From assembly GCA_965199825.1 (NCBI GenBank), contig OZ241329.1, positions 1,280,362 through 1,344,361 of the forward strand: a stretch of 64,000 bases of DNA, in the 5' to 3' direction. Shown here one piece after another: positions 16,141 to 58,801 of this stretch (positions are counted from its first letter, which is position 1; every line of letters starts with the position of its first letter). The position numbers and the translations under genes are program-made. The notes under the pieces are model-generated. The model searched no databases and was not told the origin of the DNA. It saw nothing but the letters and a program-made list of their open reading frames with translations. This DNA is from Bdellovibrionales bacterium (GTDB lineage Bacteria > Bdellovibrionota > Bdellovibrionia > Bdellovibrionales > UBA1609).

Positions 16141-16157
16141 AATGTTAACAAAAGAAT

Positions 16158-19924: not shown

Positions 19925-19931
19925 GGCCACT

Positions 19932-25855: not shown

Positions 25856-27763
25856 TTGTGTGAACCATGGTATCCTAAAACAACATTGAAAAAACTCGGC
25901 GTTTTAGCCTTACTCATTTTGCCGCTCGTATTATTTCAAAATTGTTCAAAATTGAGCAGCACTCTCTTTGTGACCTCGTTGTCTTCAAATGCAGGATTCG
26001 CATTAGATCAAAAATTTACATCGACAAAAATGATTTCGAATCAAAACCAAATTATTTTTACAGGCGTGTGTGCTGCGGGCTCTGAGATCACCATTCAAGA
26101 TCAAACAGAAACTTTGACCACGAACTGTCAAAATGGATCTTGGAGTTGGACCTCTGTGAGTTCGACCGGTGGATTAAGAACCTATTCATTTACCCAAAAT
26201 AATGTGAGCCTGTCGATGCGGGTATTGCGAAACTTTTCGCTCAACGGATCCTTTGCCGAAGGGGCAACCGACAGCGATGATATTTTTGTATTTACTATGG
26301 GCTCTCAATTGATGCTGGTTCAAAATCCATTTCATGCCACAGACTTTACTGGCACATCCATTTTTAGCGAGTCCAATCCGATTCAAGCGGTTGCTCTGAA
26401 TCCTTCGGGGCGACAGGCCTACTACGTGATGGGTGGAAATCTTTATTGTTATGCATTTTCAAATCTTGATGAAAATGACAACTGTCGCAACCGACGAGCC
26501 GATGCCCATACTCTGCAAGCAACCAATATTCAGATGCATGGCGTGCTCGCACAAATATCAGGAACTGCTGATAAAGCCGAGTGGATCGCACCTTCAACAA
26601 TCAATGTGCAGTCTCAAGGGATCGTAATTTCATCGTATCAAATCCCAAAGCCCACACTGATCACCCAAAATTTAAAGGTGGGTGTAAATATAAAAATGAA
26701 TGGCGATGCTTACCAAATGGGAGCCGACGCCATTTTTAAAAAACTTTCTGATAATGGATTTAAAAGTGCTCGTTTGTTCTTAGGAATTCCACCCCTCACC
26801 GCAACCCAAACATTTAATGATACTGTGGGATACTTAAGAACCTACGTCACCGCCGCCCAAAAATACGGAATACAAATTTATTTAAATTATCAGGTGGAGT
26901 GGATTGTTTGCCCCTCGGATAGCTTCACATTTCAAACTCAAGATCAAAATGCAATTTATCAAAGTGCCTACCAAACCACTCAAGCGTTTGTTGATCATTT
27001 TAAAAATGATATTGTCGAGTGGGAACTTGGCAATGAGCTCGATCTGAAAAGTGGAACATCAAATTCACCCGGCGGTTGGCCCTATGGATTTCAAGCAGCC
27101 GATTGGGATCAAGTTTCGGCTCACGGAAGCTCCGATTATTACGGAAATTTTGCCGCCGCTCTTAAAGGGGCTTCTGATGCGATCAACGCTGTGAATACCG
27201 CCTCGGGCACTCATATGAAACGGATCGTAAATTCTACGGGCACCCATCTTGGATTATGGAAATTTTTAATTTCTAAAAATGTTCAGTTCGACGAGATTTC
27301 GTATCACTATTACCAAACATCGGGCACTTCGGCTTATGCCTATGCGACCACCGATCCTAATTACCCGGGCTCTCAAGCATGGAACGTGGTGGGAAGTCTT
27401 GCCCAGTTTAATAAGCCTGTCCAGATTACCGAATTCAATTGCGGCGAAATCTATAATGACAGTTTTCAAAATACATCGAGTGATCCACTTTACGCCCAAT
27501 GTTTAAAGAGCTTAAAAGTTCAACTGAATTATTGGACCAAACAAACTGTGTTTGATCTCTCGGCAATTTATGCCTACGAGCTTTTTGATGAGCCCTCGCA
27601 ACCCGATATCCACGAAAAACATTTTGGTTTATTTTATGCCCTAAATGATGGCTCGACCTCACCCAAATCGACCCTGTCGATTTGGCAATCTTTGGCCGGC
27701 ATCACGCTCACCCAAGCCCAAATCGATGATCTTAAAGGTTATAACGTCTGGCCGCTGTTTTAA
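25856..27763 (+). CDS. secreted lipoprotein, putative clan GH-A (TIM-barrel) glycoside hydrolase
   Basis: Lipobox-like 'LFQNC'. Candidate acid/base 'EWELGNELD' and nucleophile 'VQITEFNCGE' sit at the spacing expected for (beta/alpha)8 clan-A hydrolases. The family is not identified and the start codon is uncertain (TTG). Confidence 0.5.
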   Translation: MCEPWYPKTTLKKLGVLALLILPLVLFQNCSKLSSTLFVTSLSSNAGFALDQKFTSTKMISNQNQIIFTGVCAAGSEITIQDQTETLTTNCQNGSWSWTSVSSTGGLRTYSFTQNNVSLSMRVLRNFSLNGSFAEGATDSDDIFVFTMGSQLMLVQNPFHATDFTGTSIFSESNPIQAVALNPSGRQAYYVMGGNLYCYAFSNLDENDNCRNRRADAHTLQATNIQMHGVLAQISGTADKAEWIAPSTINVQSQGIVISSYQIPKPTLITQNLKVGVNIKMNGDAYQMGADAIFKKLSDNGFKSARLFLGIPPLTATQTFNDTVGYLRTYVTAAQKYGIQIYLNYQVEWIVCPSDSFTFQTQDQNAIYQSAYQTTQAFVDHFKNDIVEWELGNELDLKSGTSNSPGGWPYGFQAADWDQVSAHGSSDYYGNFAAALKGASDAINAVNTASGTHMKRIVNSTGTHLGLWKFLISKNVQFDEISYHYYQTSGTSAYAYATTDPNYPGSQAWNVVGSLAQFNKPVQITEFNCGEIYNDSFQNTSSDPLYAQCLKSLKVQLNYWTKQTVFDLSAIYAYELFDEPSQPDIHEKHFGLFYALNDGSTSPKSTLSIWQSLAGITLTQAQIDDLKGYNVWPLF

Positions 27764-31246: not shown

Positions 31247-33147
31247 TGGAAATTACAACTCAATATTTATCAGGCTTAGTGTTGCTCTCTTTTTTGGTAG
31301 CAATCGCGGCATCGTTTGTCGCACTTGATATGGTACAAAGTCTTTCGCATGCAAAGGGTTCAAGTAAACTCTTTTGGTTGACCGGAGGCTCACTCGCAAT
31401 GGGCTGCGGAATTTGGAGTATGCATTTTATCGGCATGCTCGCCTTTGATATGCCCGGTATGACCATGGGTTATGATATTCAGCTCTTAATTTTATCGATC
31501 GTTGTGGCGGTGGCCGGCTCGGCCTTTGCCCTCCTGATCATGAGTAAAAATCCGATTTCACACACGATGTTGTCAATGAGCGCGTGTGCGATGGCTTGCG
31601 CAATTGCGGGCATGCATTACATCGGAATGTTTTCGATGCGAATGCACGCCGAAATTAAATGGGATCTCAATCTGATCGCATTTTCTTTTGTGATTGCTCT
31701 TGCCGCATCCTTTTGGGCGTTTTTGGTCGCGCGCGAACTGACCACAATCAAAAATCCATTGCGCATTCAAATTGGTGCAAGTGTGTTGCTCGGTATTGGG
31801 ATCGCCGGAATGCACTATATCGGAATGAAAGCTGCTCATTTTTATGCGGCCGAAACTTCTTCCTTTAGTGATGGCGGGTATGTGCTCGCAAATTCTCAAC
31901 TCACCGTGATTGTGGTGGGTGTGACCTTTATGATTTTGACCCTTGCGCTGAGCGGCTCGACCATCGATCGCATTTTAACAAGGCGATCGATTAGCGAAAA
32001 AGTGAATTTGCAAAAAGCCAAGGAGGCCGAAATCGCCAGCGAACTCAAAACCCGCTTTTTAGCCAATATGTCTCACGAGATCAGAACTCCTCTTGGAGCA
32101 ATCATTGGTTTTACCCAAGTTTTAATTGATGAGCCTTTAAGTGAACAACAACGACAGGCCCATCTTAAAACAGTTCTTCGCAGTGCAAGAGCTTTACTCG
32201 CATTACTTGATGATATTTTGGATCTTTCAAAAATTGAGCTCAACAAACTTGAGATCGAAAATCGCGATTTTGAATTGAAAACCTTTTTGGATGAGCTGAT
32301 GAGCATGTTCAAAGTCAAAACAGATGCGAAAGGTTTAACCCTTGATCTTCAAGTTGATTCGCTTTTACCAAAACGAATCTTTAGTGATTCGAATCGGCTC
32401 AGACAAATTTTGATGAATCTGATCGGCAACGCGGTGAAGTTTACCGAATACGGTGGGATCAAGGTGAGAGTAAAAAGAGACGGCAGCGATTACCTTTCTT
32501 TCGAAATCGAAGATAGTGGCATCGGGCTCACCGCTGAACAGACTTCGCGTTTATTTCAACCCTTTACTCAGGCCGATAATTCGACAAGCCGAGTGCATGG
32601 GGGCACGGGGCTTGGGCTTGATATCGCAAAAAGAATGGCCGAGATGCTCGGGGGAACAGTGGTAATTTTAAAAAGCGAAAAAGGTAAAGGCACCACCTTT
32701 ATTGCAACTATCCAATTGGTTAAAGCAAGAGTCGAAGAGGTGGCAAAGACATCATTAATTTCAACGTTCTCATCTGGAGAACTTAAAACTCTGAATATTC
32801 TCGTGGTTGATGACAATGAAGATAATCAGGCCTTGATCAGTCTTATCCTCAAGTCCAAAGGGGCAACCGTTGCCTTGGCGAGTGATGGAAGCCAAGGTGT
32901 AGAAAAAGCCGAGAAAACGGGCTTTGATGTGATCTTGATGGATATCCAAATGCCAGTGATGAATGGTTACCGAGCCATCGAGCTCTTAAGAGCTAAAATG
33001 ATCACCAGCCCCATTATTGCTCTTACGGCTAACGCCTACAAAGACGAGCGGGACAGGTGCTTTAAGAGTGGCTGTGATGCTTACATCACGAAGCCAATTG
33101 ATGTAGCAGAACTTGTGGCCACAATCCAACAGCTGGTCCGAGTTTAA
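31243..33147 (+). CDS. MHYT-domain hybrid sensor histidine kinase/response regulator
   Basis: Three membrane MHYT motifs ('MHFIGMLAF', 'MHYIGMFSM', 'MHYIGMKAA'). H-box 'SHEIRTPL', N-box 'LIGNAVKFT', G-boxes 'DSGIGL' and 'GTGLGLDIA'. C-terminal REC 'ILVVDDNEDN...VILMDIQMPVMNG...ITKP'. Confidence 0.85.
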   Translation: MMEITTQYLSGLVLLSFLVAIAASFVALDMVQSLSHAKGSSKLFWLTGGSLAMGCGIWSMHFIGMLAFDMPGMTMGYDIQLLILSIVVAVAGSAFALLIMSKNPISHTMLSMSACAMACAIAGMHYIGMFSMRMHAEIKWDLNLIAFSFVIALAASFWAFLVARELTTIKNPLRIQIGASVLLGIGIAGMHYIGMKAAHFYAAETSSFSDGGYVLANSQLTVIVVGVTFMILTLALSGSTIDRILTRRSISEKVNLQKAKEAEIASELKTRFLANMSHEIRTPLGAIIGFTQVLIDEPLSEQQRQAHLKTVLRSARALLALLDDILDLSKIELNKLEIENRDFELKTFLDELMSMFKVKTDAKGLTLDLQVDSLLPKRIFSDSNRLRQILMNLIGNAVKFTEYGGIKVRVKRDGSDYLSFEIEDSGIGLTAEQTSRLFQPFTQADNSTSRVHGGTGLGLDIAKRMAEMLGGTVVILKSEKGKGTTFIATIQLVKARVEEVAKTSLISTFSSGELKTLNILVVDDNEDNQALISLILKSKGATVALASDGSQGVEKAEKTGFDVILMDIQMPVMNGYRAIELLRAKMITSPIIALTANAYKDERDRCFKSGCDAYITKPIDVAELVATIQQLVRV

Positions 33148-33177
33148 TACCTTCGTTCATATTTACCTTTGTACAAT
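33127..33177 (+). repeat. direct repeat copy 1 (3' end of the kinase gene plus upstream region of paralog 1)
   Basis: 'caacagctggtccgagtttaataccttcgttcatattt(accttt)gtacaat' recurs at 35060-35104. Confidence 0.8.
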
Positions 33178-33226
33178 ATAAAGCTGGGCTGTTTCGAATT
33201 TTGGGCGGCTCAGTTATAACACTCTG

Positions 33227-35056
33227 ATGGGCATTGTGTTTGTTTTGTTTAGTTTTTTGGCGCTGGCCCAGCCCGGTGATCCTTGTATTCAACATCTCAC
33301 CGAGTATTTTCCACGCACGTGGCGTATTGACCAAAAAAAAATAGATCAATATTTAGATCAAAATCCTGAAGAATTAAAAACATTTTTGCAATATTCAAAG
33401 CTTGCCGAATTCATCGAGGACGCTCGTCACGAAGCATTTTTTGATTGGTTAGGAACACAATATTATTTAAGCACAGATCAAAAAAATGAAATGGATCTCG
33501 ATGCCGAAATAAAAAAGTATGTGATTAAAAATAACCCATCTTTTTCGCTAAACGAATCAGATCCAGCAAAACTAAATGAAGTGTTTGATAAGACGGTCAA
33601 CACTCTTTTTAAATTTTTAGAGCAAAACGGACTTGGAAATTTTAGGCTGATAACGAAAGGTCCTTTTTTAGAAATTTTTAAAAAGTACGATTTGGATATT
33701 TATAATTTTGTTTTAGATAAAAAAATACCTCCGTCGTCACTTCGAACTTTTCTGACCCTGACCCAACTTTTGTATGCCGAAGATCCTGAAATTCATTCTT
33801 CAACTGAAGAGTTGGAAGGCCTCTATGAACCTTTTTTTTCACTGCTGGGTGAATCGAAATTTGAATCCAAACAGCCATTGCCAAAAATTGATTTTGGTTA
33901 CAACAAAGAAACGCTAGATAAAATTTGGCTCTTTCTTAAATCCTCGAATTACCCTCTTCCGGAATATTCAACATTACTCAAACACTCTGAGGTCGTGCAG
34001 GTACAGGCTGTGGCAAAGATCACTCACCACTCCAAGCAGAAGTTGACTGAGAATGAAGAATCGGAAGTTTTGGAGATTTACAGAAATCAGATTTTAGGGA
34101 CTGAGCCTGTTATTCCTTTTAAATTTAAGAACCTCATCGCTGATCTTGAAGATGATGATATTGTGCTCAAGATCAGTGATTCAAAAAAATCAATAGCAGC
34201 TTCAAAAAATATGAGCGAAAAAATTCGCCTCGGGGCAATTCAAGCCACCTACCTCGCCCGTGCATCTTATGGACTTATGACCGATAAAAGTATCAACTCG
34301 GAGGTGGCTCCCAATGAATCGGTCACATCTTATCGGCTTTTTTCGAATTTCGTACTTGCATCCTTTCGTGAGATTTCAATTGATCAAGGGCTTGAACCGA
34401 TGATTCGCAAAGCTTTTGTAAAAGTATTCTTGGACAAATCGATTCTCTCAAGCGCGAGTTACCGGGCGATGATGCGGACACGTCTAAAACAAGTCATCGC
34501 ATTAAAAATAAACACAAGTGCTCAACATGTCCACGCTGAGAGCAAGCCAACGACACCGCAACCTCAGCCGAGGGTTGGTCCTACGCGCGAAGAGCGCATC
34601 GCAAATTATGTGAAAATCGAAAAAGAGCCTGCAGAAGAACCGGCAGTCGAGCCACGAAACCAAACCGATGAGACTGAATCAAAATCGGATTTTCTTTCGC
34701 AGCTGTTGGATGAGCCCCAAGATTTGGCAACCGATCGCCGACGTTTATTAGAGCTCATCAAGCCCGACAAGATTATCCCGATTACGTTGAAACGGTTTGG
34801 GTTTGTCTATCAGGTTGTGTTCTCAAAACGGGCGCTTGAGGAATTGGCGTCACCACGTGCTCAATTTCCACAAGATTTTCGGCCCTGGCTCAAAGCCATG
34901 AGTATGGGTCCTGCTCGCGGTCAAGGTCAAAACGGATGGAAAAGGATCAGTGGACATGAATGGAAAATTAAAATTTTGACTTCACCCTATCGGCTCTACA
35001 GCTATCGAGACAAAAAGCGAATATGGCACTTTACTCAATTTCAGTTGGATCACTAA
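33227..35056 (+). CDS. secreted protein, paralog 1 of a 3-gene family, with RelE/ParE-like C-terminal module
   Basis: Signal peptide 'MGIVFVLFSFLALAQP'. Family N-motif 'C.Q.LT.YFPRTWRIDQK'. C-terminus 'FVYQVVFSKRALEEL...GWKRISGHEWKIKILTSPYRLYSYRDKKRIWHFTQF'. Confidence 0.75.
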   Translation: MGIVFVLFSFLALAQPGDPCIQHLTEYFPRTWRIDQKKIDQYLDQNPEELKTFLQYSKLAEFIEDARHEAFFDWLGTQYYLSTDQKNEMDLDAEIKKYVIKNNPSFSLNESDPAKLNEVFDKTVNTLFKFLEQNGLGNFRLITKGPFLEIFKKYDLDIYNFVLDKKIPPSSLRTFLTLTQLLYAEDPEIHSSTEELEGLYEPFFSLLGESKFESKQPLPKIDFGYNKETLDKIWLFLKSSNYPLPEYSTLLKHSEVVQVQAVAKITHHSKQKLTENEESEVLEIYRNQILGTEPVIPFKFKNLIADLEDDDIVLKISDSKKSIAASKNMSEKIRLGAIQATYLARASYGLMTDKSINSEVAPNESVTSYRLFSNFVLASFREISIDQGLEPMIRKAFVKVFLDKSILSSASYRAMMRTRLKQVIALKINTSAQHVHAESKPTTPQPQPRVGPTREERIANYVKIEKEPAEEPAVEPRNQTDETESKSDFLSQLLDEPQDLATDRRRLLELIKPDKIIPITLKRFGFVYQVVFSKRALEELASPRAQFPQDFRPWLKAMSMGPARGQGQNGWKRISGHEWKIKILTSPYRLYSYRDKKRIWHFTQFQLDH

Positions 35057-35059
35057 CTT

Positions 35060-35104
35060 CAACAGCTGGTCCGAGTTTAGTACCTTCGTTCATATTTGTA
35101 CAAT
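35060..35104 (+). repeat. direct repeat copy 2 (relic of the kinase 3' end upstream of paralog 2)
   Basis: 'caacagctggtccgagtttagtaccttcgttcatatttgtacaat' is nearly identical to 33127-33177, with one substitution and a 6-nt gap. Confidence 0.8.
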
Positions 35105-35151
35105 TGAGAGCCTCAACTGTTTTGAAAACAATCCGGCTCGGTTATAGCTTC

Positions 35152-36987
35152 ATGATGAGCTTCATTTTTATTTTGTTTAGTTTCTTTGCTTTTGCCCAGC
35201 CGATCGACTCTTGTACCCAAGATCTTACCGATCATTTTCCAAGAACCTGGCGTATTGATCAAAAACAAGTCGATCTCTTTTTGGCTGAGCGTCCTGAAGA
35301 AACGAATTCATTCTTACAATATTCTCAACTGGCCCAATTTGTTGAGGACGAAAAACATGAGGCGTTTTTTGAATGGCTCGGCGTCCAACATTTTTTGAGT
35401 GCGGCTCAAACAGAAGAAATTAATCTGGATCAAAAGATCAAAACATTTCTTAGCCAAAGAAATATTCCGATCTCAGAGGATCCATCAGTTTTACGACAAT
35501 CGGTCATGAATGCGGTGAATGAGGACATAGAAGGCTTTAGGCAAGTTGGCCTTGAAAATTTTAAGCACTTATTTGATGGACCGTTCGAAAGAGTCTTAAA
35601 AAATTACGATCTAGATGTTTATAATTTTGTTTTTGGTAAGCCCGTTCCCCAGTCTTCACTGCGAGCCTTTCTTACAGTTCTTAGTTTATTAAAAGCGAAT
35701 GATCCCGAGATTCATGCTTCAACAGAGGATCTTGATGGCAATTATGAACTGTTCTTTTCGTTGCTCGACGAGGCTAAATTTGAAAAGCCACGGCCTTTTC
35801 CGGCCCTTGATTTTAAATATGATCAGGCAATGCTCAATAAACTGCGTCTTTTTTTAAAGACTCAGGGGTATGAGCTTCCCGAATATTCGACACTCATGAA
35901 ACATTCTCGCTACGTTCAAGTGGATGCAATCACAAAAATCACATCTCAATCTCATGAATTTTTTAATGAGAGGGAATACGATCAAATCACCGAGATTTAC
36001 AAAAATATTGTTTTAAGAAATCCAACTTTTGTTCCTCAAAAGTTTAAATATCTCATCAACGAATTGATTGATGAAAAAAATCAGTTTGTTGTTAAGTATG
36101 GTCTTCCAAAAAAATCGCTCTCGAATCCAAAAAAAATTAGAGAACTGAGCGAAAATTTTCGGCTCTCTACACTTCGCTCGATCTATCTCGCTCGGCTTTT
36201 CGAAGGTTTTTTTACCGATGAAAATGGCTCCGAAATTCCCCATGATAAACTGATCACAACCGAGCGACTGTTTGGGATTCTTTTGGCATCGGCTCCTGAG
36301 GAGATTTCGGTAGATCAAGGGCTTGATCCGCTTGTTCGTAAAGCCTTTGTAAAAGTATTTTTAGAAAAGCCAATTCTTTCGAGCAATGATTACCGAACGA
36401 TGCTGCGTACCCGGTTGAAACAAATCATCGCTTCAAAATTAGCTACGGTTACAAAATCCTTTAAGCTTGATAAAGACCAGAAGGTTGCGCCATCGCAACA
36501 GAATCTGGGGCCGACCCGCGAAGAGCGCAAAGCGAACTATGTGAAGATCGAAAAGACACCTTTGCAAATAGCAGAAGTCGCTGCAGCTCGAAAAATAGTG
36601 GAGATGGAATCAAATTCAGATTTTCTTTCTGAGCTTTTAGATCATCCTCAAGATTTGGCAACTGATCGCGAACGTTTGCTTAAAATGATTCGGCCAGGTG
36701 AGATTATCCCCATTACCCTTAAACGATTTGGGTTTGTTTACAATGTCACATTTTCAAAGCGGGCGCTCGAAGAGTTGACCTCTCCCAGTGCACAGCTGCC
36801 ACAGGATTTTAGACCTTGGCTCAAAGCGATGAGCATGGGGCCTGCGCGCGGTCGGGGTCAAAATGGCTGGAAGAGGGTCAGAGGACATGAGTGGAAAATC
36901 AAGATACTGACTTCACCATATCGTTTGCATAACTATCGTGATAACAAACGGGTCTGGCATTTTACTCAGTTTCAACTCAACCATTAA
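35152..36987 (+). CDS. secreted protein, paralog 2 of the family
   Basis: ATG 35152 gives 'MMSFIFILFSFFAFAQP', co-linear with paralog 1. The ORF-track start at 35023 overlaps paralog 1 and reads through the repeat relic. It has the same N-motif and the same 'RFGFVYNVTFSKRALEEL...HEWKIKILTSPYRLHNYRD' C-terminus. Confidence 0.75.
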   Translation: MMSFIFILFSFFAFAQPIDSCTQDLTDHFPRTWRIDQKQVDLFLAERPEETNSFLQYSQLAQFVEDEKHEAFFEWLGVQHFLSAAQTEEINLDQKIKTFLSQRNIPISEDPSVLRQSVMNAVNEDIEGFRQVGLENFKHLFDGPFERVLKNYDLDVYNFVFGKPVPQSSLRAFLTVLSLLKANDPEIHASTEDLDGNYELFFSLLDEAKFEKPRPFPALDFKYDQAMLNKLRLFLKTQGYELPEYSTLMKHSRYVQVDAITKITSQSHEFFNEREYDQITEIYKNIVLRNPTFVPQKFKYLINELIDEKNQFVVKYGLPKKSLSNPKKIRELSENFRLSTLRSIYLARLFEGFFTDENGSEIPHDKLITTERLFGILLASAPEEISVDQGLDPLVRKAFVKVFLEKPILSSNDYRTMLRTRLKQIIASKLATVTKSFKLDKDQKVAPSQQNLGPTREERKANYVKIEKTPLQIAEVAAARKIVEMESNSDFLSELLDHPQDLATDRERLLKMIRPGEIIPITLKRFGFVYNVTFSKRALEELTSPSAQLPQDFRPWLKAMSMGPARGRGQNGWKRVRGHEWKIKILTSPYRLHNYRDNKRVWHFTQFQLNH

Positions 36988-36992
36988 AAAAG

Positions 36993-38705
36993 ATGATCAC
37001 ACCAATACTCTTCTTTTTATTTAGTTTCTTTGCTTCCGCTCAACCTGTTGATTCTTGTCTTCAGAGTCTGACCGATTATTTTCCACGCACCTGGCGCATC
37101 GATCAAAAACAAGTGGAGCAATACTTAATTCGGCATCCCGATCAGGCGGCGCTGTTTCAAAAGTATTCTTGGTTTGCATCGTTTATTGAGGCTAAAGAGA
37201 ATCAATCTTTATTTGATTGGCTTGGAACCCAATATTATTTAAGCGCTGCGGATCGAATTCAAACTGACAGTAAACAGACTACAGAAAAATATGTGGCGGC
37301 AGCAGCGGAGCAGTTAAAGCTCAACTCCGATGAAATCGAAAAGATGAAGTTGGTCACTCATTCGCAAATCAATTTCGATGTGGATGCAATGGAAGCCCAA
37401 GGCCTTCATGGAGTCAGATTCTTTTTTGAAGGCGCTGGAGTCGAGGTTCTCAAAGCCTATGATTTAGGACCTGAAAATTTTAAACTCCAAACCCGTGTCC
37501 CAAAATCTTCGCTGCGGGTTTACCTCACCGTGCAACAACTTCTTTATTCGCGAGATCCTTCGGTGCACGCCGCAATGGAAAAATTGACCGAGAATTTTGA
37601 TTTGTTTTTTTCGCTTCTGGGGCCAGCCGATTTTGAAGAGGCAAAGCCATTTCCTATTCTCTCAACCGATTATGATCCAAAAAAAGTAAAGCAGATCGAA
37701 GTTTTTTTGAAGTCGCGAGGATATATCTTACCGAGCTTTGTTGACTACACCATACACTCTTCGGCTGCTCGAAACTACGTGGTGAATTTGATCTTAAGAT
37801 CTTTTAAGCAAAACCTGAGTCGTGAAGAGCTCGACGAGTTTTTGCTTATTTATAAGAAAAGTGTTTTGGGCGAAGCCCCACCGGTTCCGCCAAAATATCA
37901 AGAGATCAATCGGCTGTTGATTGCCGAATACACTCATGCGGGAACGTTGATCCGCCAACTGATGCCCACAGTAACAAGTCCAAAAAAAGTCAAAGAGCTC
38001 TATCAAGATTATTTGATCGATATGATCAATTTTATTCATTCGGTACGGATCAACAGTCTTGTTAGAGTTGAAAATGCAACGGTGAGCTCATCAATTTTAT
38101 TTTATCTTATCGCTCTATCGAACTTTGCCGACTTAACCCAGGATCGGGGGCTTGAGCCTTTGATTTACAAATCATTTGTGCACTTGGTTTTAAAAAAGCC
38201 TTTATTATCTGCCGATGATTATCGCGCGATGCTCAGGCGAGGCCTCAAGGAAAAAATCTCTGCGATCCTCAAACAGGATGTTGAGCCCAAAAAAGATTTA
38301 TTGGTTGCGAGCGTTCAACCTCTTGAGCTCCCAAAGTTGATGGTGAATGAAAAACGTCAAGCTCCTCCAGCAAAAAAAAATAAACCTGCCGAGACTCAAG
38401 AGATCGAAATTCCTGTGGGAATTGTTCCAGAGAAAATTGAGCCCAATATTCCCATCCAGATCGTGATCAAACCTTTTGGATTTGTGTACCGAGCCTCTTT
38501 TTCTGAAGCTGTTGTTTCTGAGCTTTCGACGCCCTGGCGTGAGGCTCTTGCACGAGGACCGGCGCGGGATCAGAGTCGAGACGGGTGGAAGCAGGTGCGG
38601 GATTACGAGTGGCAAATCACTTTGCCCAACTCGCATCAGCGCTTAGTGGGATACCGAGATCCATCAGGGCTTTGGTATTTTACCCATTTTGTTTTTGATC
38701 ACTGA
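36993..38705 (+). CDS. secreted protein, paralog 3 (more divergent)
   Basis: 'MITPILFFLFSFFASAQPVDSCLQSLTDYFPRTWRIDQKQ'. C-terminus 'FGFVYRASFSEAVVSEL...GWKQVRDYEWQITLPNSHQRLVGYRDPSGLWYFTHF'. It starts 5 nt after paralog 2. Confidence 0.75.
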   Translation: MITPILFFLFSFFASAQPVDSCLQSLTDYFPRTWRIDQKQVEQYLIRHPDQAALFQKYSWFASFIEAKENQSLFDWLGTQYYLSAADRIQTDSKQTTEKYVAAAAEQLKLNSDEIEKMKLVTHSQINFDVDAMEAQGLHGVRFFFEGAGVEVLKAYDLGPENFKLQTRVPKSSLRVYLTVQQLLYSRDPSVHAAMEKLTENFDLFFSLLGPADFEEAKPFPILSTDYDPKKVKQIEVFLKSRGYILPSFVDYTIHSSAARNYVVNLILRSFKQNLSREELDEFLLIYKKSVLGEAPPVPPKYQEINRLLIAEYTHAGTLIRQLMPTVTSPKKVKELYQDYLIDMINFIHSVRINSLVRVENATVSSSILFYLIALSNFADLTQDRGLEPLIYKSFVHLVLKKPLLSADDYRAMLRRGLKEKISAILKQDVEPKKDLLVASVQPLELPKLMVNEKRQAPPAKKNKPAETQEIEIPVGIVPEKIEPNIPIQIVIKPFGFVYRASFSEAVVSELSTPWREALARGPARDQSRDGWKQVRDYEWQITLPNSHQRLVGYRDPSGLWYFTHFVFDH

Positions 38706-39390: not shown

Positions 39391-40884
39391 TTAATGTGAA
39401 TACTTCTGCAATACCTGATACTGCGGCGCCGTTGGGGATTCAATCGAGTAAGCATAATTTCCCCACCAGGGGCCAGCGGCCCAGTAGGTCACTTCAATGC
39501 CATGATTCTGCATAAATAAAAGTGCTTTATCAAGACTGACATTCCAGTTGAGGTTGTCATTCCCAACTCCGGTTTCACCAAGATGACAAGCAACCCGGTG
39601 GGCTTCGCACCATAATGCGAAAGGTCGAATGCGATCAACAAGCGTATCAGTGTTCACACCCAATTGAGCTTCATCATTCCAGTTGTAGTGTGTTCCGGAG
39701 GAGTCATGATCGGCGTAGGCATGGGCCGAGTAGACAATATGATCTGATGGATCTTGCAGAGGAAATGTTGGATTTTGATTATTCCAGTCGGCAGCGTTAG
39801 AATAGAAATTTCCCTCAACGTAAATTAGCACCGAGCTGTCAATCGAGCGAATCGCATTGACCGCATCTTGTGCGGACTCAGCCCAGACAGTTTCTGAAGG
39901 CATGGCGTTGGGCTCATTCATTAAATCGTATCCACCAACGCCCGCTTGATTTTTGAATTCAGAAGCCAATCTTTTCCAGAGATCGGCAAGATCAGCCGCG
40001 GTCACTTGACCTCCGCCGATCACATTGCCCCGATACCTCGCGTAGTTATGGATATCGAGCAAAACACGCATTGATTTTGAGCTCGCATAATTTAAAATAT
40101 GACGAATCTGATTTAAATAGATTGTATTTAACTCAGCCTGAAGCGTGGGTTGAAGTCGTTCCCAACTTAAGGGCAAACGAATTAGGTTAAGATGTGAGCT
40201 CTGGTAGGAATCGATTTCGCTGTCGGTGATAAGAGCGTAGTCAGTGCCTGCTGCTCCCGGGAATTGCGAACCGTATTCCATCCCGCTTGCATTAACACCT
40301 AGTTGAAATTGACCCTTGATAAAACCATCAGAAGGGTAGGGAGTGGGTACGGCACTCGTTGCAGCAACTGCACTCAGCCCGAACTGATTCCAAAAATGCA
40401 GGGTGGAAAAGTCGGAGCTAAATGCTGCAAAAATAAAATAGTATGTGCCCAAGGCTGCGGATGTTGGAAAAGTGTAGCTCATCGTAAACTGTTGTGTTTC
40501 GCCAGTGGTAAAAATTTGGGGTTCAGAGGTTTGACTCAAAGTGTTTCCATTAGCGTCGCGGACCTCGATTCGGATGACATAATCGCCAGCTTTGATTGCT
40601 GTTATTTTTCCGGTAGCTGTCACACTCGAGCCCACACGCACTTTTGTGGCTGAGAGCATGTGAGAGGTGAGATTGATATTTGGAGTTGTTGGAGCGTCTT
40701 CGGTCCATAAGGAGTAATCATTGGATTGTCTGAGTGTGCCGGCTTGCGGTGCCGACGAGGACAATCCACTTGTTGCATTTTGAAGCGCATGAAATTGCCC
40801 GGAGCTACAGTTATTAAATAAAAAAAGATTTGCGAGGGCGATCAAAACTAAGGAGATCTTTTTGAATATTTGGAGTCGTTTCAT
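39391..40884 (-). CDS. secreted glycoside hydrolase family 5 (cellulase-type) with N-terminal Ig-like domain
   Basis: Lipobox-like 'LFNNCSS'. GH5 motifs 'NLIRLPLSWERLQP', 'DIHNYARY', acid/base 'YDLMNEPN', 'HAYAD' and nucleophile 'HLGETGVG'. Confidence 0.8.
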   Translation of the reverse strand: MKRLQIFKKISLVLIALANLFLFNNCSSGQFHALQNATSGLSSSAPQAGTLRQSNDYSLWTEDAPTTPNINLTSHMLSATKVRVGSSVTATGKITAIKAGDYVIRIEVRDANGNTLSQTSEPQIFTTGETQQFTMSYTFPTSAALGTYYFIFAAFSSDFSTLHFWNQFGLSAVAATSAVPTPYPSDGFIKGQFQLGVNASGMEYGSQFPGAAGTDYALITDSEIDSYQSSHLNLIRLPLSWERLQPTLQAELNTIYLNQIRHILNYASSKSMRVLLDIHNYARYRGNVIGGGQVTAADLADLWKRLASEFKNQAGVGGYDLMNEPNAMPSETVWAESAQDAVNAIRSIDSSVLIYVEGNFYSNAADWNNQNPTFPLQDPSDHIVYSAHAYADHDSSGTHYNWNDEAQLGVNTDTLVDRIRPFALWCEAHRVACHLGETGVGNDNLNWNVSLDKALLFMQNHGIEVTYWAAGPWWGNYAYSIESPTAPQYQVLQKYSH

Positions 40885-40953: not shown

Positions 40954-41742
40954 TTAATTCAATCCGCAAGATTGTTGATCGTATATTGTTTTAATTTCTT
41001 TTGCCAAAAGTGCTGTGTTCCACACTGCAGCTTCGGCAATCGTTCCTGATGTCCAATACGCATAACCAGTGTGACCACCAATTTGTAATGTGTAGGTCGA
41101 AGAACTTGTCCACGTGGTACTCGCTGTCCCGTCAGCACGTCCATTGACATAATAGGTGATCGAAGACCCATTGATTACAGCAGCAATAAAATACCATTTT
41201 GCTAATTGCAGCGTAGTTTGCCCAGACGCGCCCGAACCAAAAACAATCTGACCAGGAGGATGTCCATAAGATCCAACTACTCCAAAAATGACATTGTTTG
41301 GACCTGATCTTTGATCGATCACGTAGTTGACGAGACTGGTGTTGTAAGCCGCAAGTTTGATCCATGCACTAAAAGTTAAACCACTTCCGCCTGCAGAACT
41401 GCCAAAGTTCAAAGTGCTTGATGCGGGCACTCCAATGTATCCTGTCGATCCATCGAACAAAGCAGCAGTCGTTCCCACTCGGCCTGGTACTCCTAATGTT
41501 GTTCCACTTTGCGGCACTCCAGTATTTGTAGCGATCGAGGAAGAGTCTGTGACACTTGTTGCTCCATAACTCTCTGCTAAGGTCCAATACCCTACGAGAT
41601 GTGACCACTGCGGTGTCCAACCTGACTTTAATTTATAGCAAGCTCCGCCTGCACCAATCATTGCTGTGAGCGAACTTGTTGGTTGAGCCAGAACAGCAGA
41701 GGGCAGACATAGAATAAAAACTTGAACTAAATAATTTCTCAT
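40954..41742 (-). CDS. LamG (concanavalin-A-like lectin, Laminin_G_3-type) domain protein
   Basis: 'LVGYWTLAES...DSS...ALFDGSTGYIGVP...LTFSAWIKL...WYFIAAVINGSSITYYVNG...LQIGG...GTIAEAAVWNTALLAKEIKTIY'. ATG 41742 overlaps the stop of the 1638-aa fibre gene as ATGA. Signal peptide 'VFILCLPSAVLAQP'. Confidence 0.7.
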   Translation of the reverse strand: MRNYLVQVFILCLPSAVLAQPTSSLTAMIGAGGACYKLKSGWTPQWSHLVGYWTLAESYGATSVTDSSSIATNTGVPQSGTTLGVPGRVGTTAALFDGSTGYIGVPASSTLNFGSSAGGSGLTFSAWIKLAAYNTSLVNYVIDQRSGPNNVIFGVVGSYGHPPGQIVFGSGASGQTTLQLAKWYFIAAVINGSSITYYVNGRADGTASTTWTSSSTYTLQIGGHTGYAYWTSGTIAEAAVWNTALLAKEIKTIYDQQSCGLN

Positions 41743-44700
41743 TGATACCCACTCGCCCAAGTGACATAGCAGTCATAAGTTGAACCATTATATATTGTTG
41801 TCATAGTGATCAGCGTTCCACCAGAACCAGTTGTTACAATGGTATTGGCCGCCGACGACAAGGGTTTGTATTTGATTGATCCACAACTGGCCGCTGAGAA
41901 AACAATATTGATTGAGGCGGTGTCTTTAAAAGAGATCAAATAATTTGCTCCATTTGCAGGAGTTCCGGTAAAGGTGAGTGCCACAGTATCATTTGCAACC
42001 GCAAAGGTCGGACTAATCGAAAATGCATTGGTTGCTGAAAAAGCTAAATTTGCTGCCCAACTTGGACTTGATCCCGTGACGCTTGGACTACTCTGAAGAC
42101 TGACGATGGCTCCATTCACAGTCAGCGCAGTGGTGGGCGAAGATGTGCCGATCCCCACATTGCCGCTCACGATCATTCCATTTGTGGGTGCTGCAAGCAC
42201 ACCACCGTAGGTGCCGAAGGAAGCACTGCCTGCGACGTCGAGGGTTGAAGTGTTGCTGGATGTATTGACCCCGAGACGTGAGCCTGCGCTGTTAGTAATA
42301 TTATAATTGAGAGTACTTCCAGAATTGCCCGAAATCCCTCCGGCATTGGAATAGAATCGAACGCCACCGCCGTAATAAATCAGACTTCCACCACTGGTGA
42401 TATCTAGATTTCCATAAACAGTAAGTGTTGGGTCACTTGCCGAAGTTTCGGCCTTGGCGGTCCCACCGATCGCCATCCAGCCTTGCACATCGGCCGAGCC
42501 GGAGACATCTAAGTTGTTTTGAGGATTACTTGTACCAATCCCCACATTGCCTGATGAATCCACGCGCATTCTCTCAGGCGCATAAGAGTTGTTTATATTT
42601 GTGGTATGAAAAGCAATGTGTCCGTCACCGGCTGCAGCGGTGAGGAGAAGTTGTGCTTGTGCCTTTGAAGCGTCTGTAACTACCCCGTCTGAGATGCGGC
42701 GATTTGAAGAGAGCCCAAAATTATCGCCGTAGGTTCCCAAATAAATTTTGTTGCTGGTGTTTGATGCAACGGCAAGATCTGTATTTGCTGATGCACCGAC
42801 CTGAAGTTGGGCCCCTGGCGATGTTGTTCCAATACCCACATTACCACTCACAATCAAACCATTCGCAGGTGCTGCTGTTACGCCTGCATAACTTCCAACC
42901 GACATTCCACCCGTTACATCCAATGAAGATTTGGGAGCAGCAGTTGCTCCGACGTTGATGGGGCTTGAGATATAATTGTTTGCGCCTCCGTTTGCTTCAC
43001 CTAAACGAAATCCATTTCCTGTCACATAGCCATGACTGTAGGCCGTGCCCATGCAGAGATCACTAATGCAAAGACCATCGGCATTGATTCCACCCACAAC
43101 TGAAAGAGTATTTGTGGGCGAGGTCGTTCCTATTCCAACTTTTCCATTTTTTAAAATTTGAAACGCGGTCGAAGGAGTCGACGCGCTTTGCCCATTCCCA
43201 ATCACGAATAAGGGATCGGTGGCCACCCATGCGTTGGCGGTCTCGCCGCCGTAAGTGTTGTACGTCCCCATAACGGTTTCGTTGTATGCGGGCGCCTTAA
43301 CAGCTGATCCGATGGCGACTGCGCTTTGCCCATTTGCTTGACTTGAAGAACCCAATGCAAGGCTTGCATAGCCTGAAGCATTATTCGCAGTTCCAAGTGC
43401 AACCGAATTTGATCCCGAAGTCTGACTCCCATATCCTAATGCAATCGAAGCAAGTCCGCGCGATGTGCTCGTGTTCGATTGAACCGAACCATCGTTCATC
43501 ACTGTGAAAGCCGAAGTCCCATTCGAAAGAATATTTAGATTGGATGAGCGCACAAGGCATCCATTGTGAGGCACGGCGGATGTTCCTAATTGACCACGCG
43601 AAACTCCGGTAAATGAATTTGATGTGAGTCCCGTGTAGGAGACCGCTTCGGAGTCGAGCCATAAAATTCCAGAAGAGCCGAATCCAGTGGTTGAACTTAC
43701 GGGAATGACAGTGACCGTATTATCGATCGAACCTGCAAAGGTGCCAGCAACAAGGCTTGATGCCGAATTCACTCTGAGACTTCCAGTCACCTCTAGTGTT
43801 TCATTCGGAGTGACCGTTCCAATACCGACCCGACCACCACCCTGAATAGTCATCAACGGGGTTGCGGTGCCCGTATTTGAATAATCGTAGAATCGAAAAC
43901 CACCAACCGTTCCGTATCCACGATTAGCTATGAAGTCGCTTTCACCGTCGCCACCCGAATAATTAGATCCAATCAAATTTTTCCCCTGGAATTCAAGTTT
44001 GGTGAGATCAATAGATGGAGAAAGATTTGGATCCAAATTTCCATTTGGTCCCCCTAAACTGACGACGCCAGAAATATCTAAATTATAACGGGGTGATGTG
44101 GTTCCGATTCCAACACTCCCACCGGTCGCCAAAAGATTTCCGTTGGTGATCGCAACATCACCCCCGCCAAACGCAGAGGGTCCAAAGGATTTGATTGAAA
44201 CTGTATTAAACCCATTGCCTTGACTGATATTAAGAACGCCATTGCCGTAATTATTAAACGCGTTGATCACCGAGTTTGGCCCGTTCGGTACGGTCAATTG
44301 GCCAACATTTGCGGTCCCTGCCACATCGAGTTTGCCACCCATACTAGAATTGTTTGTAACCGTGAGGCCAGTGCCTGTGCCGCTGGCGGTGACTGGTCCA
44401 GAAAAAGTTTCTGTTCCTGCAATTGTCTGGTTGCCCGAAGTGTTGAGCAGTGACCCGTAGGCTCCTCCGTTTTGTGACAACATTAATTGGTTGGAGGTGG
44501 AATCGAAATACATGCGGGCTTGGGCGCTGGGTGCGACCGAAGGCGCAATCGTTCCTCGAAGCGAAATCGCACCGTTAACATCGAAAGTTGAGGCGGGTGA
44601 TGTGGTGCCGATGCCGACATTTCCGCTTGAAGTAATTCTCATCGCTTCGCTTAAAGCTGTAGCATTCGGCCCAACATCAAATGCGATGATTCCATTTGTT

Positions 44701-46655
44701 GTATTCTCGAGACGCAAGTTTGACGAATTTGATTTTAAGACAATGTCACCGTCATTGGTTGTATTTGTCCATGCACCATTGCCAACGGCCACACCGAGGA
44801 CACCCTTTGAAGCCCCATTGGAATCTAAATTTATACCGACAGAATTTGTGCCATCAACTACAAGGCCGTCGTATTGACTGGTAGAAAAAACATGTAGCCG
44901 CTTAGCCGGCGAAGTTGTTCCAATACCAACATTGCCATTAGCAAGAAGTGTCATGACTGTCGTTTCAGCGTTTGGAGGGTCGCCGATTGCGGCTTTGAGA
45001 TTGATATCTAATCGAGTGTTTGGACCATACCCATTAGCAATACTATTCGCCGCGTAGGTTCCAAGTTTAAATGCTGCGGCTTGGGAATAAGAAATGCCAC
45101 CATTGGTCGGTCTTGAAATTTGAAATTCATTTTCGGTTCCTACACCAGCAGCGGCAAGAGACCCGCTAACGTCGAGCGCGGAGTTTGGTGAAGCTGTAGC
45201 AATACCAACTCTTCCACCACGAGGATTTAGGAGTAGAGGTTGGTAGCTTCCTATCTTTGATGAAGAAATATATGCGGCATCGACTGATCCATCATATCCC
45301 ATATATAAACTCTGACCGCTTGTACCGGTATTGATTGCAAAACCGTGAGCGCTTACTTCATACCCACTCGAGCTTGTATCTGCAGTGACTACCAGTTTGG
45401 AAATCGGAGCGTTGTCACCAATTCCTACGTTGCCGTTTGCGGTTACTGTCATGACGTCGCCGATGCCGCTGCGTAAATTTAGAATTCTATTGGTCGCACC
45501 GATGGAAGCTACATTCACAGCTAAACCGTTCGCGTGACTATCTGAAAATTCGTTATTCAAAATCCCCGCGGCATAGCCACCTCCAGAAGTTGCCCACGAG
45601 ATTCCGTTTGAATTTTCATATGAGGTGCTCGCATCGCCAATACCATACGGTGTATTTGCTAATTGGGTAGACGGTGCTGTCGTCCCAATCCCAACAGATC
45701 CATTTCCTAAAATTGTCATTTTCGTTGAAGGGGAGTTACTTGTAGTCCCGCTTGAGGTTGGCGTTGCAGTTTGAAATTGGATTGTCGAACCGCCAGCACC
45801 TGTAGATACCCCAGAAGACAAATTTAAAAATCCTCCACCTTTGTCACTTGAAGATAAGGTTGCGCCACCAGCCGTAACGCTCAAATTGTTGCCCGCACTA
45901 TTCGAAGTGGTCGAGCGCTCCATCGCAATATTGCGCGCGACATTGCCACCAAAACTCAAATCAGAACTAGGATTTGTCGTGCCCACACCAATTTTGCCTG
46001 AGCCTAAACTTAAATTTCCACCTGCAAGTCCAGCAAACGAAGTCGATGTTCCGTTGATCAAAGCGAGCAATTCCGCATAAGGCGTGCTCGCAAAGATCGC
46101 ATCCACTTTAGATTGGGTGGTGTCGCTGCTCGTTTGTATAAAACCCGATGAGGCTGCACTTGAAAGTCTCTCGGCTTCAAAGGCATACGGCACAGACTCA
46201 ATGACGTAAGGCGCAGAAAATGCCACCGTGTCGGGTCCATCAACAAAGCTCACATAAATGTTGCGTGAATCGGTCGGTTGCGGAGTGTAGGCGGTAGCAG
46301 TGGGTGCTCCCACGCAATTTAAACTCGAAAGTGTTCCGGCATTTTGAAAAGCACTGGAGACCGAAAGACCAAGATCATTCGATGTTCTTACACCTGTACC
46401 GAGCGTGACCGCAAAAATGCCGTTCGAGTTTGTCATGTTAAGAGGAAAAGTTTCTTCAAACAAAACACATTCGGGCCGTGAGTTCGCAATCGCCATGCTT
46501 GTGACACGGATAGTGAGATCCACCGTTGAGGACTCAACCACCACGCTGTCTTTTAAAAGTTGTCCTTGAAAGGTGATGCCTTGGGGGGCAGCAAAAGCAC
46601 CGCGGCTGATAATAAAGAGTGCGAGCCCAATCCTGAGCCCTTGTTTTAAATTCAT
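41739..46655 (-). CDS. giant fibre protein E (type-1 N-module, about 12 'GNVGIGTTSP' junctions, Hep_Hag-like repeats, no S74 domain)
   Basis: 1638 aa with signal peptide ending 'GAFA|APQG'. It has the family N-module and ends in a unique ~130-aa domain ('...YDCYVTWASGYQ'). Confidence 0.85.
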   Translation of the reverse strand: MNLKQGLRIGLALFIISRGAFAAPQGITFQGQLLKDSVVVESSTVDLTIRVTSMAIANSRPECVLFEETFPLNMTNSNGIFAVTLGTGVRTSNDLGLSVSSAFQNAGTLSSLNCVGAPTATAYTPQPTDSRNIYVSFVDGPDTVAFSAPYVIESVPYAFEAERLSSAASSGFIQTSSDTTQSKVDAIFASTPYAELLALINGTSTSFAGLAGGNLSLGSGKIGVGTTNPSSDLSFGGNVARNIAMERSTTSNSAGNNLSVTAGGATLSSSDKGGGFLNLSSGVSTGAGGSTIQFQTATPTSSGTTSNSPSTKMTILGNGSVGIGTTAPSTQLANTPYGIGDASTSYENSNGISWATSGGGYAAGILNNEFSDSHANGLAVNVASIGATNRILNLRSGIGDVMTVTANGNVGIGDNAPISKLVVTADTSSSGYEVSAHGFAINTGTSGQSLYMGYDGSVDAAYISSSKIGSYQPLLLNPRGGRVGIATASPNSALDVSGSLAAAGVGTENEFQISRPTNGGISYSQAAAFKLGTYAANSIANGYGPNTRLDINLKAAIGDPPNAETTVMTLLANGNVGIGTTSPAKRLHVFSTSQYDGLVVDGTNSVGINLDSNGASKGVLGVAVGNGAWTNTTNDGDIVLKSNSSNLRLENTTNGIIAFDVGPNATALSEAMRITSSGNVGIGTTSPASTFDVNGAISLRGTIAPSVAPSAQARMYFDSTSNQLMLSQNGGAYGSLLNTSGNQTIAGTETFSGPVTASGTGTGLTVTNNSSMGGKLDVAGTANVGQLTVPNGPNSVINAFNNYGNGVLNISQGNGFNTVSIKSFGPSAFGGGDVAITNGNLLATGGSVGIGTTSPRYNLDISGVVSLGGPNGNLDPNLSPSIDLTKLEFQGKNLIGSNYSGGDGESDFIANRGYGTVGGFRFYDYSNTGTATPLMTIQGGGRVGIGTVTPNETLEVTGSLRVNSASSLVAGTFAGSIDNTVTVIPVSSTTGFGSSGILWLDSEAVSYTGLTSNSFTGVSRGQLGTSAVPHNGCLVRSSNLNILSNGTSAFTVMNDGSVQSNTSTSRGLASIALGYGSQTSGSNSVALGTANNASGYASLALGSSSQANGQSAVAIGSAVKAPAYNETVMGTYNTYGGETANAWVATDPLFVIGNGQSASTPSTAFQILKNGKVGIGTTSPTNTLSVVGGINADGLCISDLCMGTAYSHGYVTGNGFRLGEANGGANNYISSPINVGATAAPKSSLDVTGGMSVGSYAGVTAAPANGLIVSGNVGIGTTSPGAQLQVGASANTDLAVASNTSNKIYLGTYGDNFGLSSNRRISDGVVTDASKAQAQLLLTAAAGDGHIAFHTTNINNSYAPERMRVDSSGNVGIGTSNPQNNLDVSGSADVQGWMAIGGTAKAETSASDPTLTVYGNLDITSGGSLIYYGGGVRFYSNAGGISGNSGSTLNYNITNSAGSRLGVNTSSNTSTLDVAGSASFGTYGGVLAAPTNGMIVSGNVGIGTSSPTTALTVNGAIVSLQSSPSVTGSSPSWAANLAFSATNAFSISPTFAVANDTVALTFTGTPANGANYLISFKDTASINIVFSAASCGSIKYKPLSSAANTIVTTGSGGTLITMTTIYNGSTYDCYVTWASGYQ

Positions 46656-46679
46656 AATCTCTCCATAAATTATTTTTAT

Positions 46680-51011: not shown

Positions 51012-51020
51012 CTGTCATCC

Positions 51021-54791: not shown

Positions 54792-54812
54792 GAAACTTCC
54801 TTTAATAAAACT

Positions 54813-58772: not shown

Positions 58773-58801
58773 TTGGGTCCCTTTTCAATAGATAGCAATC
58801 T

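Follow-up and report, generated by a model that had tools for sequence, protein, structure and literature searches.

A rare family of predicted exported proteins ending in a putative RelE-fold domain in a Bdellovibrionales bacterium

A 64,000-nucleotide (nt) stretch of DNA from a Bdellovibrionales bacterium (contig OZ241329.1 of assembly GCA_965199825.1, positions 1,280,362 to 1,344,361), referred to here as the window, contains three tandem genes for paralogous proteins of 570 to 611 amino acids (aa), each with a signal-like N-terminus and a C-terminal domain that is predicted to adopt the fold of the RelE/ParE toxin superfamily. Together with seven more distant relatives these proteins constitute a genuine, rare and unannotated family. 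The interpretation tentatively preferred is that its members are Sec-exported pro-proteins, in which the C-terminal RelE-fold domain would serve as an RNA-cleaving effector outside the cytoplasm of the producing cell. The coordinates of the genes and of their parts are collected in Table 1.

The assignment of the C-terminal domain begins with a structural prediction. When the last 99 aa of paralog 2 were modelled with AlphaFold2 (AF2) using the nine-sequence family alignment, the predicted local distance difference test (pLDDT) was 85.3 and the predicted template modelling score 0.74. The elements follow one another as b-b-a-a-b-b-b-b (strands, E, and helices, H: E7-10, E17-22, H24-31, H42-50, E60-65, E68-72, E78-84 and E89-97). 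The topology of RelE-like BECR domains has been summarised as 'pre-beta + pre-alpha + alpha + beta1-4' (bioRxiv preprint 10.64898/2026.08.28.747851), which the predicted domain matches with one additional N-terminal strand, E7-10. The first-ranked structure in a Foldseek search of the PDB was E. coli RelE (4fxe_E; E = 0.016, probability 0.99, template modelling (TM) scores of 0.50/0.57, 20% identity over 81 columns), and the remainder of the top six were a further E. coli RelE (4fxh), T. thermophilus RelE (2khe), S. pneumoniae HigB (6af4) and the archaeal RelEs 3bpq and 1wmi. HP0892, ParE (6xrw), HigB2 (5jaa) and BrnT (3u97) came next; approximately half of the top 50 PDB matches, including ranks 1-6, belong to these RelE, HigB, ParE, HP0892 and BrnT groups, with probabilities of 0.97-0.99. 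The corresponding search of viral structures in BFVD was uninformative.

The same relationship is evident from a directed comparison of profiles. The RelE profile consisted of eight sequences, namely E. coli RelE (verified as exact), T. thermophilus RelE and six prophage homologues, these being the diverse sequences usable from an IMG/VR harvest composed mostly of identical E. coli prophage copies. Aligned to it with hhalign, the family C-terminal domain scored 23.0 over 63 columns in local mode (P = 0.0017) and 23.4 over 82 columns in global mode (P = 1.9e-4), and neither score was reached by any of 200 column-shuffled profiles (global mean 2.8, standard deviation 1.7, maximum 9.4). The alignment pairs YNVTFSKRALEEL with YFLDFDERALKEW and WKIKILTSPYRL with YKIKLRSSGYRL, thereby reproducing over the whole domain the alignment to RelE that an earlier note on this DNA had drawn by eye. 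The proposal of that note that these proteins carry a C-terminal RelE/ParE-superfamily module holds as a predicted fold, on the AF2 model and the top Foldseek matches, and membership of the RelE/ParE fold class is considered highly probable.

In the hhalign alignment the residues of WKIKILTSPYRL in paralogs 1 and 2 fall on K52, K54 and R61 of RelE. The Arg at the R61 position is invariant in the family, as is the terminal residue, a His, at which the proteins stop; the K54 position is occupied by Lys in all members but paralog 3, where it is Thr. In C-terminal columns that are of low confidence, the terminal His is placed opposite RelE K80, the neighbour of R81, and coincides with the His in the 'VGH' of T. 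thermophilus RelE, which likewise has a His at the end of its last strand. The same holds for YoeB, YafQ and HigB. Isoelectric points (pI) of the domain lie between 9.8 and 11.2 in every full-length member other than paralog 3. Over the last 99 aa paralogs 1 and 2 are 84% identical, compared with 45% for either against paralog 3, in which ten residues are missing from the inter-helix loop and, as had been noticed earlier, WQITL stands in place of WKIKI. Paralog 3 may be a catalytically dead or degenerate copy.

At the opposite end of the proteins, each of the three paralogs has a hydrophobic core of 12-14 residues (Kyte-Doolittle mean 2.3-3.0) followed by A-x-A, and a hydrophobic N-terminus with A-x-A is conserved in kind across the family; hydropathy reveals no second hydrophobic segment elsewhere in the paralog proteins. 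Several of the distant relatives have n-regions rich in Lys and Arg. Two other proteins encoded in the window resemble the paralogs in this respect: an outer-membrane porin (PF07642) begins MNIIIFTFLFLIKSYA then EP, likewise with no basic n-region, and the signal of a LamG protein ends ..SAVLA then QP. The signal peptides proposed in the earlier note are consistent with these features, and Sec export of the family is likely. The motif which that note placed at the start of the mature proteins is present in all three, with the correction that paralog 1 reads LTE rather than LTD. Mature family members contain exactly one Cys, which lies 5-6 residues past the predicted cleavage site in the paralogs, is not part of a lipobox, and is also present in the relatives P0004-P0007 and P0010. 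This lone conserved residue suggests an intermolecular disulfide or some other covalent attachment.

The extent of the family was determined from several searches. Of the 5.8 billion proteins covered by a word-indexed search, only the three paralogs matched, all on a single contig, and repeating the search with family alignments gave even fewer matches. Seven more proteins of 470-587 aa (P0004-P0010; E values from 1e-30 to 9e-5) came from an exhaustive HMMER scan that covered 1.84 billion cluster representatives; they sit on metagenome contigs of 47-66% G+C, and a neighbouring CheB gene did not reveal their taxonomic placement. They share the layout of the paralogs, in which a signal-like N-terminus and the single-Cys motif are followed by a long body (~440 aa in the paralogs), a linker that is variable except for the consensus P.R.ER...Y, and the C-terminal domain, ending L-M-H in the relatives. 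No further members were detected in GTDB representative genomes, in JGI metagenomes (two scans) or in IMG/VR, and megablast against phages found nothing. One relative, P0008 (L166 7704-9512), was called without a signal peptide. The frame upstream of it is open and encodes the family Cys and a 'P..LGF.PGE' N-terminal motif with no hydrophobic start, and its gene appears to be either mis-called, frameshifted or truncated.

Conservation along the family proteins peaks in the C-terminal domain, where mean pairwise identity is 0.32-0.43, as against 0.03-0.28 elsewhere. In the numbering of paralog 2, the runner-up among 30-residue windows is aa 391-420 (0.28), just past the motif DQGL.P..R.AFV, followed by aa 61-90 (0.26), and conservation is at its lowest over aa 91-180, within the body (0.03-0.09). 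A comparison of paralogs 1 and 2 shows the same pattern, with 84% identity in the C-terminal domain and 47-55% in the body and linker. The earlier note had likened the family to polymorphic toxins, in which the C-terminus is the variable part; because here it is the most conserved part, these are not classical polymorphic toxins, and the analogy fails on this point.

A number of results weigh against the exported-effector reading, the first group of which concerns the remoteness of the match to RelE. No match at E ≤ 10 was found in Pfam or NCBIfam for the full proteins, their C-terminal domains or nine family C-terminal domains, and at the same threshold the family was not matched by the curated RelE/ParE models (PF05016, PF06769, PF15738, PF05015, PF09907 and others), while RelE, YoeB, YafQ, HigB and ParE, run as positive controls against the same Pfam library, were recovered at E values of 1e-13 to 1e-43. 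Searches of PDB sequences using phmmer and hmmsearch with the C-terminal domain, the family profile and a full-length profile gave only chance-level matches (Csy3, SufE, keratin), and neither PADLOC nor PHROGs gave anything useful for the three proteins, their C-terminal domains or the family members. The alignment behind the AF2 model is only nine sequences deep, and with the three window paralogs alone the model was poor and unusable (pLDDT 46). None of the Foldseek matches reaches E ≤ 0.001, with typical E values of ~1e-2, TM scores of ~0.5 and root-mean-square deviations of 4-6 Å, and the HH-suite probability of the hhalign alignment is only 15-22%. All of this would be expected if the resemblance to RelE were spurious, AF2 having been pulled to a common fold by a shallow alignment and KIK...YRL being a short chance motif. 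Such an explanation is quite improbable, given that the element order, the top structural neighbours and the collinear profile alignment, which are partly independent of one another, all agree, and that the conserved residues coincide with functional positions of RelE. As no Foldseek match attains E ≤ 0.001, single matches are modest, and it is their consistency that is regarded as the real signal.

The second group concerns the nature of the putative active site and the setting of the genes. In RelE, R61, R81 and Y87 are critical for cleavage, and K52 and K54 are less important (Neubauer et al., PMC2807027). The KIK lysines stressed in the earlier note were the least important residues in that study, and two of the three most important are missing here: R81, Y87 and the C-terminal helix of RelE have no counterpart in the family, since the protein ends at the invariant His. 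The K52 position is itself variable: paralogs 1 and 2 have the Lys, paralog 3 a Gln, and the distant relatives carry Glu (WEIK). The ~440-aa body has no match in any of the libraries scanned (Pfam, NCBIfam, PADLOC, PHROGs and PDB sequences). Conservation as strong as that of the C-terminal domain is atypical of conflict toxins; it is the slowest-evolving part of the protein and shows no arms-race diversification. The relatives are encoded by single-copy genes with unrelated, mostly housekeeping neighbours (RNase III/Era, ETF-QO/HIT, RF3), and around the cluster in the window there is no signature of a secretion system, phage, plasmid, antitoxin or immunity gene, such that a link to secretion or immunity is missing. 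These observations would fit a RelE-fold module exapted to a non-toxic role in an envelope or periplasmic housekeeping protein, where the C-terminal domain would bind nucleotide, nucleic acid or protein, and ParE-type members of the superfamily are not nucleases (PMC11980606). Even so, exaptation is considered somewhat unlikely: the invariant Arg and terminal His and the near-invariant Lys align with active-site positions of RelE and of the ribonucleases (RNases) Sa and T1, the domain is strongly basic (pI ~10-11), and the sole paralog that lacks the Lys residues has also lost its basic charge, as a single RNA-directed function would predict.

The variable position may be informative as to what kind of nuclease the domain would be. 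When RelE is superposed on RNase Sa/T1, K52 coincides with the Glu that acts as general base and R81 with the His that acts as general acid; RelE itself does not have the Glu/His acid-base pair of these enzymes (PMC2807027). The family consensus Glu...Lys...Arg...His looks more like the self-sufficient site of a classical microbial RNase than like that of RelE. Glu at the K52 position and the terminal His would make an RNase T1/Sa-like pair, so the activity may not require the ribosome; that is, the predicted RNase activity may be ribosome-independent.

The third group of contrary points concerns export and self-protection. The signal peptides were judged by sequence features, and a basic n-region is missing from all three window paralogs, so that their topology is not certain from sequence. 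Were the N-terminus an uncleaved anchor, the family could be membrane-anchored, cytoplasm-facing fused toxin-antitoxin or defence proteins, the body being a cis-antitoxin or sensor that releases the RelE-like activity on phage attack or stress. A cis-inhibitor would account for the missing antitoxin gene, and multidomain, fused antitoxin-toxin and transmembrane (ToxM) RelE/ParE proteins do exist (PMC11980606). That this is such a system seems very improbable. The 12-14-residue core before the A-x-A and QP is too short for a stable transmembrane helix, the mean Kyte-Doolittle value of the paralog N-termini taken over 19 residues being only ~1.65, and the porin and LamG protein of the window carry the same style of signal. 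Neither Pfam nor NCBIfam detects a DNA-binding or antitoxin domain, and PADLOC gives one marginal match among 10 members (ThsA Macro domain, E = 0.014). A cis-fused RelB-like toxin-binding region, sought in the helix-plus-strand segment before the C-terminal domain, was rejected at the sequence level because the hhalign score against RelB residues 47-79 equalled the shuffled mean. Finally, in ToxM the domains are arranged the other way round and a toxR gene lies upstream.

Secreted RNases such as barnase normally need an intracellular inhibitor. No antitoxin or immunity gene is adjacent to the three paralogs, in agreement with the earlier note: the intergenic gaps are 79, 95 and 5 nt, paralog 3 overlaps a convergent RibD_C gene by 26 nt, and there is no room for a small partner open reading frame (ORF). 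Nor is there a conserved small neighbouring gene at six other family loci.

Under the exported-effector reading, this arrangement would be explained by the way in which the protein is made. The pre-protein would be exported via Sec and its short signal peptide cleaved after A-x-A, and the basic BECR-fold domain of ~85-99 aa would cleave RNA outside the producer cytoplasm. The domain would act on the RNA or the translating ribosomes of a different cell, for which prey is a plausible candidate given the grouping of the organism with Bdellovibrionota. The producer would be spared, with no dedicated antitoxin, by synthesising the toxic domain last and exporting it unfolded, possibly masked by the N-terminal body; the position of this domain at the extreme C-terminus would mean that no antidote gene is needed. 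A more specific version, in which the RelE-like domain is released, perhaps at the R-x-E-R linker, enters the prey and stops translation by cutting mRNA or rRNA, would similarly need no immunity protein, as the domain would at no time be folded in the cytoplasm of the producer. This predation scenario seems unlikely.

Comparison with known systems helps to define what the family is and is not. With E. coli RelE and other type II mRNA interferases of the RelE/HigB/YoeB kind it shares the predicted topology, the nearest structural neighbours, the collinearity of WKIKILTSPYRL with YKIKLRSSGYRL and a basic surface. Unlike these cytoplasmic proteins of ~95 aa, it has the domain at the C-terminus of a protein of ~600 aa with an export signal, and lacks an R81/Y87 helix, a Pfam RelE/ParE match and the adjacent small antitoxin gene with a DNA-binding domain that characterises type II toxin-antitoxin systems. 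Tox-RelE polymorphic toxins have a RelE fold at the C-terminus of signal-peptide ('T2SS') proteins, carry RHS repeats, a HINT releasing peptidase and Imm54 immunity, and vary at their C-termini on conserved N-termini (Zhang et al. 2012, PMC3482391). The present family resembles them in that a large protein, with an N-terminal secretion signal supported by sequence features, ends in a predicted RelE-fold domain, and differs from them in that Pfam detects no RHS or HINT domains, no repeats or immunity gene are found, and the pattern of conservation is reversed.

Barnase, RNase Sa and RNase T1, secreted microbial enzymes of the same fold class, are Sec-exported, basic, small alpha+beta proteins of a single domain, usually accompanied by an inhibitor such as barstar. 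The Glu, Lys/Arg and terminal His of the family consensus mirror their Glu base, His acid and Arg (via PMC2807027); in contrast, none of these enzymes is among the 50 Foldseek matches listed, and paralogs 1 and 2 have Lys rather than Glu. A survey of multidomain RelE/ParE proteins, which started from Pfam families, includes fused antitoxin-toxin proteins and ToxM/ToxR; in ToxM a cytoplasmic BECR domain at the N-terminus precedes a central transmembrane segment, and the toxR antitoxin gene lies upstream (Gerdes 2025, PMC11980606). The paralogs are comparable in having a RelE/ParE fold within a larger protein, as some membrane-associated examples do. They differ from the fusions, which possess recognisable antitoxin DNA-binding domains, and from ToxM, as the domain order is reversed, the sole hydrophobic segment is N-terminal and there is no small upstream gene. 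Colicins are not known to have a signal peptide, are plasmid-borne with adjacent immunity and lysis genes, and cleave tRNA. In this they are unlike the paralogs, which have a predicted signal and no plasmid, immunity or lysis features; the combination of a large N-terminal part with a small C-terminal BECR RNase, which acts in another cell, is common to colicins D and E5 (PMC3482391) and, as a predicted architecture, to the paralogs. The paralog family falls outside the definitions of type II toxin-antitoxin systems, polymorphic toxins and ToxM, and its closest kind is the Tox-RelE-like secreted BECR RNases.

The three genes are co-linear on the + strand, as the earlier note described them, and their paralogy is confirmed by alignment (56% identity between paralogs 1 and 2, and 35-37% between paralog 3 and the others) and by HMMER (E values of 7.6e-212 and 9.1e-94, far beyond chance). 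Two other details from that note are borne out, namely the C-terminal consensus string and the confinement of the linker segment GPTREER.ANYVKIEK to paralogs 1 and 2. Synonymous sites are saturated between the paralogs (proportion of differing sites, pS, 0.56-0.87) and non-synonymous change is restrained, with a non-synonymous proportion (pN) of 0.09 against a saturated pS of 0.84 between the C-terminal domains of paralogs 1 and 2, and a non-synonymous to synonymous rate ratio of ~0.2-0.3 outside this domain. This implies that the three genes are real and selected: they are old duplicates under purifying selection. From its first ATG the ORF of paralog 2 spans 35023-36987 on the + strand (654 aa), and the public gene call, P0001, uses this start. 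The protein is alignable to the N-termini of paralogs 1 and 3 only from M44 (ATG 35152) onward, and the 43 codons upstream of M44 (35023-35151) share 34 nt with the end of paralog 1 and also overlap a conserved non-coding block. For these two reasons the start of P0001 is probably mis-annotated, 43 codons too early; the longer version buries the signal peptide. There is no obvious Shine-Dalgarno sequence at any of the three paralog starts.

The conserved non-coding block precedes both paralog 1 and paralog 2. Over ~50 nt the two copies are almost identical, with a 35-nt core, CAGCTGGTCCGAGTTTA[A/G]TACCTTCGTTCATATTT, in which a single base differs and for which 0 matches would be expected by chance; this identity persists although the synonymous sites of the coding sequences (CDSs) are saturated. 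The first 18 nt of the paralog 1 block are the final codons and stop of the upstream gene, which encodes an MHYT hybrid histidine kinase. The block may be a promoter or operator common to the two genes, or a tract of recent gene conversion. RNA folding gives no support for a structure within it (z-score ~-0.5), and a sigma-70 scan of the region did not rise above background.

Downstream of the cluster lie the convergent RibD_C gene, a GH5 glycosidase and the LamG protein; two GH5 'cellulase'-family genes and the LamG gene, all with export signals, flank the cluster at 25856-27763, 39391-40884 and 40954-41760. About 3 kb downstream, five tandem giant genes on the - strand (41739-61072) encode proteins of 1638, 1443, 1256, 1319 and 756 aa that are rich in GNVGIGTTSP-type repeats. 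Four of these proteins end in PF13884 (tail-fibre/endosialidase intramolecular chaperone), and a YadA-head repeat occurs in one. They resemble the chimeric trimeric fibre adhesins reported for Bdellovibrio. A chemotaxis cluster at 12795-22991 contains two CheA-like kinases, a PAS-MCP protein and CheB (21909-22991), whose six best matches among GTDB representatives are all from Bdellovibrionota (Bdellovibrionales, Oligoflexia, Halobacteriovorax, Bacteriovoracaceae and Bacteriovorax stolpii), at 44-49% identity and with a clear gap to other phyla. The representative set searched does not include this genome, whose lineage is therefore poorly sampled. We infer that the host is a deep-branching relative of predatory bacteria, which may itself be predatory; the adhesin-like cluster and the CheB matches are taken as support from the organism for the effector reading. 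Elsewhere in the window, an ORF on the - strand (9132-10058) has a weak match to IS1-family transposases (E = 2.5e-10), under the curated cut-off.

Table 1. Coordinates, in window positions, of the paralog genes, their predicted parts and the conserved upstream block
Feature	Position	Strand	Details
Paralog 1 CDS	33227..35056	+	609 aa; from ORF, alignment and purifying selection
Paralog 2 CDS	35152..36987	+	611 aa from ATG 35152; start probably here, from alignment of N-terminus and upstream DNA with paralog 1
Paralog 3 CDS	36993..38705	+	570 aa; divergent; acidic C-terminal domain (pI 6.3), both WKIK lysines lost, no R-x-E-R linker motif
Predicted signal peptide, paralog 1	33227..33268	+	MGIVFVLFSFLALA then QP; 12-residue hydrophobic core, Kyte-Doolittle mean 2.96, A-x-A site
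Predicted signal peptide, paralog 2	35152..35196	+	MMSFIFILFSFFAFA then QP; hydrophobic core and A-x-A
Predicted signal peptide, paralog 3	36993..37040	+	MITPILFFLFSFFASA then QP; hydrophobic core and A-x-A
Mature N-terminal motif with sole Cys	33269..33337 (paralog 1); 35197-35265 and 37041-37109 (paralogs 2 and 3)	+	QP.D.C.Q.LT.(Y/H)FPRTWRIDQK
Linker motif	34577..34624 (paralog 1); 36508-36555 (paralog 2)	+	GPTREERIANYVKIEK
Putative RelE-like C-terminal domain, paralog 1	34757..35053	+	aa 511-609; WKIKILTSPYRL at 34961-34996; 84% identical to modelled domain of paralog 2
Putative RelE-like C-terminal domain, paralog 2 (modelled)	36688..36984	+	aa 513-611; WKIKILTSPYRL at 36892-36927; AF2, Foldseek, hhalign and shuffles
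Putative degenerate RelE-like C-terminal domain, paralog 3	38436..38702	+	aa 482-570; WQITLPNSHQRL at 38610-38645
Conserved non-coding block 5' of paralog 1	33126..33190	+	twin at 35059-35117, 5' of paralog 2; candidate promoter/operator

Toxins of the RelE group are seen chiefly as partners of antitoxins inside the cell (bioRxiv preprint 10.64898/2026.08.28.747851), and a conserved family in which a RelE-like domain follows an export signal and neither an antitoxin nor an immunity gene is present would broaden the known uses of the fold. The family also exposes an annotation blind spot: as Pfam, NCBIfam and PADLOC all miss the domain, surveys built on such models (e.g. PMC11980606) cannot have counted it. 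The apparent Glu/His chemistry of most members may represent an evolutionary bridge from RelE to enzymes of the barnase/T1 type. If the host is a predator, the proteins would be candidate effectors against the translation machinery or RNA of its prey. Should the predation scenario prove true, they would be candidates for the molecules behind the rapid halt in prey protein synthesis that is seen early in the attack of Bdellovibrio, and would constitute a secreted weapon of the RelE group beyond the framework of RHS repeats, HINT peptidases and immunity proteins.

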